Below are positions 6,601 through 8,706 of a stretch of DNA of 64,000 bases, in pieces (position 1 is the first letter of the stretch; every line of letters begins with the position of its first letter). A program made the position numbers and the translations under genes. This stretch comes from an uncultured delta proteobacterium. GTDB lineage: Bacteria > Myxococcota_A > Polyangia > Polyangiales > Polyangiaceae. Where the stretch lies: the NCBI GenBank assembly GCA_963782055.1, contig CAWAIF010000003.1, positions 5,248,001-5,312,000 of the forward strand, given 5' to 3'. The notes below the pieces were generated by a model. The model did no database searches. It was not told the DNA's origin and saw only the letters and a program-made list of their open reading frames with translations.

Positions 6601-8606
6601 GTCGTGGGTGGAGCTCGAGCCGTTGTCTTGCTGGGTGAGGAAGGTCCTGCCGAGGGTGTCGGCGTGGGCGAGGGTCGGGGTGCCGTCGCACGCGGCTGCA
6701 AGGGTGGCAGCGCGGTGGAGTGGATCGCCGCTGGAGAGGGCGATGTTGGTGGCGTACCACTGGGAGTCGGTGACGGTGTCGTTGGGGTCCCAGGTCTCCT
6801 GGTACCAGGGGGTGAAGACGACCTTGGAGTAGGTGCCGTTGGGGAAGTCGGTGCGTACGAGGCGGCTGAGGGCGTCGTAGCGCATGATGGGGGTGACGCC
6901 GCTCGAGGCCAGAATCGCTCTCGAGGTCGTAGCCGCCGTCGGAGGCGAAGTAGGGCTCGTACTGCTTGATGGGGTTGCCCTTGTTGTCCCAGACGGTGCG
7001 GCCGTTGCCGACCCAGCGCGGGTTGTCCTCGGCGTCGGGCTCGGCTTGCACCTTGCGCAGGACCTCCTTGCCGTTGCCCGCGGTGTACGAGTAGCTCTCC
7101 TGCCAGACGGCGGTGCCACCGTGGTCGATGCGGTGGTAGGCGTGGCCGTAGACGGGGGTGGGGGTGGAGCCGCCCTCGGTGTCGTGCCAGGAGGAGAGAT
7201 CGTATTCGAAGTAGGCGGTGGGGTCGGTGAGGGTGTCGCCGTCGGAGCCGCCGCTCTTGCCCATCTCGGCCATCTTGACGACCATGCCGAGCTCGTCGAA
7301 GGCGACGGCGACGCGGTTGCCGTTGGGGTCGGTGGTCTGGTAGGGGCCGAGGACGCGGTAGTCGTTGTCGAAGGTGGTGACGAGGTCGAGGGCGGCGGTG
7401 GTGTCGGAGGTGTGGGCCTCGGTGGGGAGCAGATCGTAGGAGTCGAAGACGACCTTGGAGCGGTTGCCGAAGGGCTCGGTGATCTTGGTGACGAGGTAGA
7501 AGTGGTCGGGGTCGTAGGTGGGGACGCTGGAGATGGCCCAGTAGTCGGAACCGACCGCGACGTAGCCGGCGTCGGTGCTGAGGATGGTGCTGGTGACGGT
7601 GCTGCCGTAGACGCTGGTGACGAGGCCCCCGGTGAGGGCGAGCGAGAGGGTGTGGTCGAGCAGGGCCTTGGACTCGATGGAGCCGAGGGAGAGAGTGGCG
7701 GAGAGATCGTCCTTGATGTAGATGGCCTGCGACTTGTGTAGGAGGCGCTTCTGGAGGCCGGAGGTGGGGGCAGTGTCGTAGGCGATCTCGCTGGCGGATG
7801 ACGCGGCGGTGGCGACGGTGTCGAAGTCGAGGAGGCCGCTCGAGTAGCTGATGCCGGTGAGCTCGAAGCTGCGCGCTTCCTTGGGCACGGCGATGCGGCG
7901 CCAGGTGTCCTGATCGTCGACGTGGATGACGTCGTGCTCGGCGAGGGAGACCCAGAGCTTGTTCTGCTCGTCGTAGCTGGAGCTGGTGCGGCGGGGGTAG
8001 CCAACGGCGGCGGCCTGGGTGACGACGCCGTAGTCGTCGACGGCGAGGGTGAAGGCGTGCTGGACGCGGGGGTCGGTGGCGTCGCGCTCGTAGTGGTAGC
8101 TCACGGCCTCGCGGGGGTGGGTGAGGTAGACGCCGTGGCGCGTACCGGCGGCGGGGGGCTGGAGCTGGCGGACCTCGTAGCGGTGCTCGGCGACGGAGTA
8201 GGGCTTGTCGGCGTCGGAGGTGCCGTCGTCGGCGTAGAGCTCCTGGCGCAGGACGCTGCCCTTGAGGGCGCGGGCGGCCTCGCGGGCCTGCTGCGGGCTG
8301 TCCGGCGTGAAGTTGGTGAGCAGGGTGCGGTCGAGGACCGTGGCGGAGGAGTCGCCGCTGAAGTACTCGCCGGAGAAGGCGGCGGCGATGTCGGCGGCGT
8401 CCTTCCAGGCGCCGGTGTGGAACCAGGTCCTGGTGAGGACGGGCGGGAGCTGGTACTCGCCGCTCTGGTCGGGCAGGAGGTTGGAGGGGAAGGTGCCGCT
8501 GCCGACGTCGTCGCTGAAGGACTCGGCGTCGCTTTGCTCGACGTAGCCGAAGCCCCTGAACTCGCGCTCGGGGCCGTCGTAGTAGCCGTGGCGGTAGCTG
8601 TAGGTG
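3661..8606 (-). pseudogene. 5'-truncated, frameshifted TcB-TcC-type (TcdB_midN/midC + Rhs core) polymorphic toxin gene with an unassigned C-terminal toxin
   Basis: Reads TYSYRHGYYDGPEREFRGFG...TRTWFHTG...RALKGSVLRQELY from the repeat edge. The SpvB-like N-terminus is absent. A +1 frameshift lies at about 6913, followed by YD repeats and NRPTTLVDPDG. Confidence 0.9.
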
Positions 8607-8706
8607 GCGCATAGGAAATCCTAGCGCGGTCGGGCGCGAAAGTTTACGGAATCCATCTTATGCGAAGTGGGGCCGTCCGGTGTCACTGGAAGGACGGACC
8701 AGGGTG
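8607..8706 (-). repeat. 100-bp oriIS-like repeat, copy 1
   Basis: Identical to 15904-16003 and 17163-17262. The minus strand ends ...GGATTTCCTATGCGC, like IS91/ISCR oriIS termini (TTCCTAT + 4 nt). Confidence 0.9.

Follow-up and report, generated by a model that had tools for sequence, protein, structure and literature searches.

The window described here is the whole of a 64,000-nucleotide stretch from an uncultured delta proteobacterium of the Polyangiaceae (assembly GCA_963782055.1, contig CAWAIF010000003.1, below C3, positions 5,248,001 to 5,312,000). It carries three identical copies of a 100-bp repeat that are separated by segments of captured DNA, here called cargos, and the last copy adjoins a gene (tnp) for an IS91/ISCR-like transposase, TnpA (Table 1). 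The repeat had been picked out in an earlier sequence-only reading. The unit is real, with its claimed start at 8601 lying six flanking bases too early; its beginning GCGCATAGGAAATCCTAGCG, its CCGTCC-N13-GGACGG inverted repeat, its end ACCAGGGTG and the triplets GTG, GCG and GTA before the three copies read as had been described. Among the functions assigned to it, the oriIS end and the fixed inner boundary hold, the G-Y-R cut site and a self-contained pair of ori and ter fail, and the hairpins are not conserved. The Xer site resembling dif and the genome-wide arrays are new relative to that reading.

The transposase and the parts of the repeat

The transposase was recognized by its Pfam matches to PF04986 (Y2_Tnp, 1.8e-27) and PF14319 (Zn_Tnp_IS91, 7.8e-16), and its residues H180, H182 and Y309 are invariant in 29 of 29 aligned homologues. 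It is 37-41% identical to the ISCR transposases (ISCR1, ISCR2/ISVsa3, ISCR28) over about 380 residues and has the single-tyrosine RLCRY motif in common with ISCR1 and ISCR2. Its scores stay below the cut-offs of both NCBIfam models that it matches, with 275 against 925 bits for ISCR clade Ia and 99.7 against 125 bits for IS91. Repeat copy 3 ends 36 bp past the tnp stop codon, with the oriIS tip 136 bp from the stop, and the ori tips of ISCR1 and ISCR2, taken from plasmid records (GTATAGGAAG...), match the tip of the repeat. The earlier assignment of the left end to the oriIS of an IS91/ISCR-type element is thus borne out, both by this tip homology and by the adjoining gene with Y2_Tnp and Zn_Tnp_IS91 domains. 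Within the tip, the CTAG...GGGCGCG motif is the presumed transposase-binding site.

Two intact copies of tnp and a third, 5'-truncated one were compared. The coding sequence of the second intact copy is about 98% identical; similarity between the two ends at the start codon, upstream of which they have no more than a 42-bp motif in common, and GG-N10-GC and CCGGACAC recur there in otherwise diverged DNA. The GG-N10-GC spacing is sigma54-like. No shared terIS-like end was seen upstream of tnp when these copies were compared, and the segment upstream of tnp is repeated in 0 of 44 related loci. A second ISCR-like transposase gene, 36% identical, lies inside a cargo at C3 2732868-2734271.

Using a dif pattern search, a single match was obtained in the genome, AATTCGCATAA GATACA TTATGTAAACT at C3 3558767, which sits 0.7 kb from the convergence of the FtsK-orienting polar sequences (KOPS) and close to the skew maximum. 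Read on the minus strand, the middle of the repeat is identical to this host dif at 23 of 28 positions (10/11 and 9/11 in the arms), including the three spacer bases adjoining the XerC arm, and, with an XerC and an XerD arm, it has the 11-6-11 layout of Xer sites. Of 15.2 million positions, none other than dif and 21 copies of the repeat scores 20/28 or more. At the level of sequence, the repeat centre is a mimic of the host dif. The host has an XerD (C3 2840465-2841322) at 343.5 bits, above the cut-off, and a best XerC match (C3 3892180-3893055) of 322 bits, just under the cut-off of 335. Its dif is single and intact, and the arrays described below lie 0.8-1.7 Mb away from it.

Inverted repeats had been noted at both ends of the repeat. 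Positions 8600-8712 fold no better than shuffled sequences (z = -0.71; 50 of 200 shuffles as good); single right halves range from z = +0.9 to -2.5 (-1.8 in the window). The TAGGA/TCCTA arms at the tip are only two bases apart, and a C-to-G change breaks the pairing in 12 of 39 tips, one of them linked to tnp. The TTATGCG that was thought to pair with the tip is the XerC arm of the dif-like site. No consensus base pair was found in an alignment of 14 related ends, and Rfam gave no match across 8400-19300.

Table 1. Features of the window around the repeats and the transposase gene.
Feature	Position	Strand	Remarks
Right part of the 11.9-kb cargo (C3 5244668-5256606)	1-8606		Rhs/YD-repeat modules
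Repeat copy 1	8607-8706	+	oriIS tip, dif-like site and inner end
oriIS tip	8607-8638	+	presumed transposase-binding motif CTAG...GGGCGCG at 8621-8638; homology to tips of ISCR1/ISCR2 and relatives
dif-like XerCD site	8641-8668	-	XerC arm ACTTCGCATAA, spacer GATGGA, XerD arm TTCCGTAAACT; 23/28 identical to host dif
6-bp GC inverted repeat, 13-nt loop	8673-8697	+	in the window; not conserved in relatives
Cargo A	8707-15903		7197 bp with genes of the PD40 and Sel1 kinds; an open frame is interrupted at its right end
Multi-copy DDE insertion sequence in cargo A	12056-13500	-	unrelated; absent from the two other captures
Repeat copy 2	15904-16003	+	dif-like site at 15938-15965
Cargo B	16004-17162		1159 bp; startless open frame (16004-16591), then a 90-residue open reading frame; no Pfam match
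Repeat copy 3, transposase-linked oriIS end	17163-17262	+	dif-like site at 17197-17224
Inner-boundary motif	17260-17287	+	TG/A (slash, boundary) and second tip-motif copy (17271-17287); complete only at the transposase-linked copy
ISCR/IS91-like HUH transposase, 573 residues	17299-19020	-	Zn finger, HUH (H180, H182), single tyrosine Y309
Upstream motifs common to second intact transposase copy	19030-19127	-	GG-N10-GC, repeated CCGGACAC

Arrays, cargos and junctions

A BLAST search with the repeat gave 68 matches in the 7.58-Mb genome, 19 of them near full length. Fifty sit in three arrays, at C3 2.72-2.74, 4.41-4.49 and 5.17-5.27 Mb, which reach about 90 kb and each end at a tnp copy, one of the three 5'-truncated and broken. 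The arrays are polar: 45 of the 50 matches are oriented like the tnp-linked copy, none lies within 60 kb upstream of tnp, and repeat identity drops with distance from tnp (rho -0.64, n = 23; rho -0.79, n = 17). The arrays at 4.41 and 5.26 Mb share a replichore and point in opposite directions; a rule of orientation by replichore is for this reason rejected. In total, the arrays take up about 230 kb, or 3% of the genome, at a GC content of 0.69 against 0.72.

Between the repeats, 26 cargo intervals could be measured, of 0-11.9 kb and mostly without a second copy in the genome. From 144 open reading frames picked by a codon model, the cargos hold a type I restriction system, a SocA/Panacea antitoxin, Rhs toxin ends, a kdp operon, kinases and oxidoreductases, with many later insertions of insertion sequences (IS) in the arrays. 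The spacers are arbitrary, mostly foreign fragments cut in mid-gene. Three of the four cargo junctions in the window were checked and all three fall inside open frames; the last gene before 8606, on the minus strand and with TcdB_toxin_midN/midC and RHS domains, is severed inside midN at the ori tip. The DNA of cargo A was captured twice more, as overlapping pieces that are 99.4-100% identical and show, with the window, three different pairs of end points. Since the DDE element is missing from these other captures, it must have been inserted into cargo A later. One empty head-to-tail dimer of the repeat occurs at C3 4433479-4433280.

Irregular neighbourhoods were also observed. A 340-bp piece at C3 4411589-4411928 matches contig C2 3479-3818, both ends being 100% identical over 120 bp, and is flanked by ori tips on opposite strands beside an array inversion. 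At C3 6165000-6205000, C2 550339-554203 and C3 2274332-2296134 there are older repeat families that have diverged and differ in their dif-like spacer, as well as clusters without an intact transposase nearby; these are possibly orphan arrays.

The two ends of a cargo are joined by different rules. A purine precedes 30 of 33 intact tips genome-wide (P = 4e-7) and all 19 tips of full copies. The G-Y-R cut site that had been proposed precedes only 7 of the 33 (background 9%, P = 0.03) and 6 of the 19. In the relative G142, the counts at 31 tips are 30 for a purine and 2 for G-Y-R. Because the bias fails at further junctions, the test that its proponent had named, the G-Y-R model is rejected. The inner boundary had been taken as fixed and is indeed constant to one base, a precise and recurrent joining point, and at 28 of 30 inner ends away from the transposase the next letters are G or AG. 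A 3' purine meeting a 5' G is the rule at every junction.

Cargo ends whose source copies are at least 90% identical were read against the source. Left ends begin at G in 10 of 11 cases, and the source has a purine just before in 9 of 10, with nothing more specific there of the G-Y-R kind. In the two informative left ends reading AG, the A is absent from the source and matches the tnp-linked copy (GGGTGA/G, the slash marking the joint). These left ends look like target nicking at R/G(C). Cargo right ends are purines, the source goes on with G in only 1 of 10, and they look like relaxed rolling-circle termination. One-ended transposition events with variable ends are described for IS91 in the accessible part of PMC13181058. 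Rolling-circle chemistry is the likeliest source of both junctions.

TGA at the inner boundary is invariant in 14 of 14 aligned related ends, and a second copy of the tip motif follows on the transposase side. Since this conserved motif straddles the boundary and array copies lack its transposase-side half, the unit is not the self-contained pair of ori and ter that had been supposed; the loss of that half would explain both the polarity of the arrays and read-through at array copies. Left and right flanks of repeat copies are never contiguous and share no duplicated target. A search for empty sites with 27 joined flanks, informative only for flanks having another copy in the genome, gave three spanning matches, all self-matches (one tnp-linked copy and the tandem pair), and so no true empty site.

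These junctions also bear on what the 100 bp are. One explanation, built on the sequence-only reading, would make them a self-contained, non-autonomous unit of ori and ter, resembling a miniature inverted-repeat transposable element (MITE), which cuts at G-Y-R and hops locally, the arrays being deletion by-products in a junk-rich island. The fixed unit length, the tandem dimer and the wealth of other IS elements in the islands agree with such a unit, and the failure of G-Y-R and the want of contiguous flanks do not. Against it stand also the position of the copies on one side of tnp only, with 45 of 50 in the orientation of the tnp-linked copy, an inner motif whose completion lies beyond the repeat, a hairpin that shows no conservation and a dif mimic left unaccounted for. 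This explanation is largely refuted, and we regard it as quite improbable.

Proposed entry of units, and related loci

The architecture of the arrays is plain from the genome, and from it we infer a mechanism. The locus is probably a polar DNA-capture array, in which the junctions would be made by TnpA and the units would enter by a crossover inside the repeat, itself probably through host XerCD. This reading is drawn from the one-sided arrays, the two junction chemistries, the unique dif mimic and the recurrence in relatives. At the tnp-linked copy, the sole one with a complete inner motif, TnpA would cut at TG/A or TGA/ and join that 3' end to foreign DNA nicked at R/G(C), giving the fixed junction of repeat and cargo. 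Rolling-circle displacement from an ori tip would pass a copy without the inner motif and end at a near-random purine, and the joining of this purine to the 5' G of the ori would give the variable junction of cargo and tip, as in one-ended transposition of IS91. The unit would then enter the array by a crossover in the repeat, most likely XerC-first at the dif-like site and usually near tnp, which would duplicate the repeat and leave no empty-site scar. A spacer unlike that of chromosomal dif would keep units off dif itself.

Evidence for a crossover is indirect and comes from how repeat halves combine. After the thrice-captured DNA comes, in all three cases, one left-half haplotype, even where the tnp copy of the array has another, and the repeats that precede this DNA differ among the captures; together these fit a crossover to the right of position 43. 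Right halves are less varied than left halves, with 26 of 32 identical and a nucleotide diversity (pi) of 0.020 against 0.040. In G142, 27 left halves pair with two main right halves that match tnp-linked copies. Distances across the spacer show no correlation there (rho -0.04), against a rho of 0.78 inside the right half, and an 11-bp duplication spans the spacer in two copies.

The repeats are themselves a target of another element. An element of 2.5 kb, which encodes a tyrosine recombinase and an IS91 transposase with two tyrosines, lies outside the window at C3 5238397-5240904, with about 12 more copies; in 10 of 13 left junctions it sits exactly at the border of XerC arm and spacer, its own end providing XerC-arm-like sequence. 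Its transposase carries YLGRY, unlike RLCRY. The TTATG at its target is rare in the genome (246 sites, 29 of them in right halves), and the copies may be non-independent, so that the element gives no more than supporting context for use of the Xer site. Some IS elements parasitize the attC sites of integrons, and the 2.5-kb element looks like a parasite of array repeats.

Related loci were sought by scans with a 29-protein alignment, which gave the best 80 of 563 confirmed genome loci and the best 80 of 567 confirmed metagenome loci. Their source titles are mostly Myxococcota/Polyangia, plus Acidobacteriota, Spirochaetales and others. For 95 non-redundant loci with a C-terminal match and at least 280 bp downstream, dif-like sites were scored with a weight matrix from seven host dif sites at a threshold of 12 bits, and 14 related loci were also checked by eye. 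That threshold was reached in 38 of the 95 ori segments, as compared with 2 of 89 upstream control segments and 1 of 63 that lay far downstream (P = 3e-15). A few of the upstream controls, at loci such as L156 with less than 360 bp upstream, were mis-sliced, an error that inflates the figure for the control and not that for the test. Of the 52 loci with 2 kb or more available downstream, 19 have direct ori copies on that side; on the upstream side 1 of 44 does. In a more distant transposase branch (L026, L035, L077, L147 and others), the dif-like site is reversed relative to tnp.

The dif-like site follows the host. In eight of nine repeats from seven genomes the best-matching dif is that of the element's own host, with one tie; the XerC arm AGATCGCATAA is identical in G146, for example, and an unusual CCCCTAA is shared in G142. 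A dif-pattern search of G147 independently recovered four oriIS-tipped repeats. At least 40 repeat matches were found in G142, with 38 sites mapped in regions around four transposase loci, and 8, 11 and 15 matches in G149, G146 and G150; the junction rules of this genome also hold in G142 and G150. A DNA search of 40 related genomes with the repeat gave only five short partial matches, and a family-wide protein search gave matches in 41 of 121 genomes, this one among them, with the nearest located on short contigs. Such recurrence bears on the idea that the arrays are assembly chimeras joined at a repeat. The arrays of this genome are indeed known from its assembly alone. Public runs contained 10% of the sampled words at most, and all were contigs; pieces in one of them, X1, stop at 14054 and show the junction of the nested element, and X1 was set aside as possibly non-independent. 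Distinct variants and nested insertions mark the copies, the junctions follow non-random rules and many independent genomes and metagenomes show this arrangement too, which leaves chimeras very hard to believe.

Several observations weigh against the proposed mechanism. Its polarity has exceptions, with copies of 100% identity 26 and 37 kb from tnp and five matches inverted. The argument from the thrice-captured DNA comprises three non-independent events, and the break in linkage is not tied down to the spacer. The left half, too, is a mosaic (rho only 0.20 between L1 and L2), and one duplicated flank in G142 differs within it, which shows that ordinary recombination acts too; the right halves of the C4b array in G142 mismatch its own tnp copy. 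Among relatives, 57 of the 95 ori segments fall short of 12 bits and no array is seen at 33 of 52 loci; the array-bearing loci L015, L025 and L086 show no dif-like site, and some dif-like sites have 7-bp spacers (L023, L028, L043, L067). Host tracking may partly reflect shared descent, and the host dif sites of relatives were found by pattern only, with none found in this way in G141, G143 and G144, a doubtful candidate dropped in G145, and the G147 row found via the dif pattern itself. No cargo-free simple insertion of the 100-bp unit was found, and the intermediate of the first step was not observed.

Part of this evidence would also suit a TnpA that builds the array alone, with RecA mixing the halves later and the dif-like site doing another job. 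A foreign strand could be spliced between a fresh repeat copy and the old ori, an in-place duplication like that of CRISPR, or units of repeat and cargo could be inserted at resident ori tips, which match R/GC. The dif-like site might then serve in resolution of multimers or cointegrates, or XerCD might be an architectural or regulatory factor at the ori. Insertion at tips fits the empty dimer and an 8-bp spacer in G150, and the mosaic left half, the dif-like sites in related ends without a visible array and the arrays without a detectable site suit TnpA alone as well. It is set back by a left-half haplotype that travels with the upstream cargo, by a lower right-half diversity that plain duplication does not predict and by duplications that span the spacer; we consider it the main rival, and unlikely. 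A crossover inside the repeat is the reading retained below.

Other features of the window and its surroundings were recorded. Positions 1-5525 hold two Rhs C-terminal modules (three with a copy just left of the window), 85-94% identical and each followed by small open reading frames; further Rhs ends occur in other arrays, one with a colicin-DNase/WHH domain. No enrichment of Rhs cores is claimed: arrays contain 4 of the 6 genome matches to the Rhs-core motif, but three are paralogues from a single cargo region. An intergenic sequence of about 260 bp has inverted repeat copies after Rhs modules (window 53-148, 2835-3096 and 16897-17160; also C3 4425284 and 917478). An element of about 200 bp at window 2485-2690, probably MITE-like or a repetitive extragenic palindromic (REP) type, has about 40 dispersed genome copies at 75-90% identity. 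A group II intron reverse transcriptase/maturase lies at window 26174-28093, with further copies in arrays, and window 57903-58175 holds a 127-bp direct repeat, 95% identical, at 146-bp spacing.

Meaning and comparison with known systems

The captured DNA behind tnp, separated by repeats, looks like an undescribed route by which soil bacteria collect DNA. We advance only tentatively, at somewhat less than even confidence, that it represents a new category of gene-acquisition system, present in Myxococcota-like bacteria and in others from soil and sediment and made of a sedentary HUH transposase, XerCD and dif-flanked cassettes in a chronological array. Integron cassettes and pdif modules raise the question of how arbitrary DNA comes by the recombination sites of a cassette in the first place. 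If the proposal is true, a leader-side site and a transposase turn arbitrary incoming DNA into cassettes with no prior att site needed, which would offer a natural route of origin for Xer-flanked modules. The two-part design, with an HUH origin and a host Xer site in about 100 bp, appears to make cassettes repeatedly. The locus ties rolling-circle transposition of the IS91/ISCR kind to Xer recombination, and it makes testable the determinants of rolling-circle termination, the capture of neighbouring DNA by ISCR-like enzymes and a possible role of XerCD as a host factor of transposition. The arrays may be a time-ordered record of horizontal transfer.

Integrons and CRISPR loci have an enzyme gene at one end, polar growth and repeats between acquired DNA, and other IS elements target repeats. 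The likeness here is one of architecture only, and would amount, if the proposal holds, to an integron- or CRISPR-like archive with kilobase spacers. There is no IntI/attC and no Cas1-Cas2; the spacers of 0-12 kb are not gene-bounded and the joining is of HUH type. An integron was considered and set aside, the adjacent gene being an HUH transposase and the cargo junctions falling inside open frames, with no dedicated attC model search made.

The literature yielded no description of oriIS arrays with Xer sites; as most subscription journals and supplements were not covered, an earlier description is possible. The accessible parts of PMC5737581, PMC13393415 and PMC9771954 treat IS91 circles, ISCR ends and pdif arrays but show no such layout. 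In Acinetobacter plasmids, pdif modules are foreign genes separated by XerC/XerD sites in arrays, as far as the available text of PMC9771954 goes. The sites flanking those modules are inverted, according to a title cited there, and come with no oriIS or transposase in that text; the sites found here lie in direct orientation within oriIS repeats, and the cargo breaks off in mid-gene.

Mobile elements that integrate with the help of Xer (IMEX) include the phages CTXphi and TLCphi, which replicate by an HUH rolling-circle mechanism. IMEX resemble the present arrays in a dif-like site for host XerCD, in a degenerate XerD arm and in forming arrays. PMC9226527 describes for them 11-6-11 sites, XerC-first integration, degenerate XerD arms and arrays from successive integrations. 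In IMEX a whole phage genome enters at chromosomal dif, whereas here dif is untouched, the arrays lie elsewhere and the units are different arbitrary fragments.

Canonical IS91 transposases have two catalytic tyrosines in a YxxxY motif. With IS91, IS801 and IS1294 the present element shares the Y2_Tnp and Zn_Tnp_IS91 domains, an oriIS end and the lack of target duplication, and it differs from canonical IS91 in its one catalytic tyrosine (RLCRY) and perhaps, as far as the compared copies show, in having no shared terIS upstream of tnp. A defining feature of IS91, in the accessible part of PMC13181058, is a tetranucleotide target shared with the terIS cleavage site; no tetranucleotide rule applies here, where the target is purine/G only.

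ISCR elements stand closest, through the HUH motif, RLCRY and a homologous oriIS tip downstream of tnp. Genes are captured beside oriIS in ISCR, and capture between two oriIS copies, a "sandwich", is reported for ISCR28 in PMC12772301 with reference to another paper; this is the nearest precedent found. Four of four plasmid-borne ISCR/IS91 ori ends tested lack a dif-like site. The present system differs further in its tens of ori copies of about 100 bp, whose inner end is fixed and which line up in polar arrays that reach about 90 kb.

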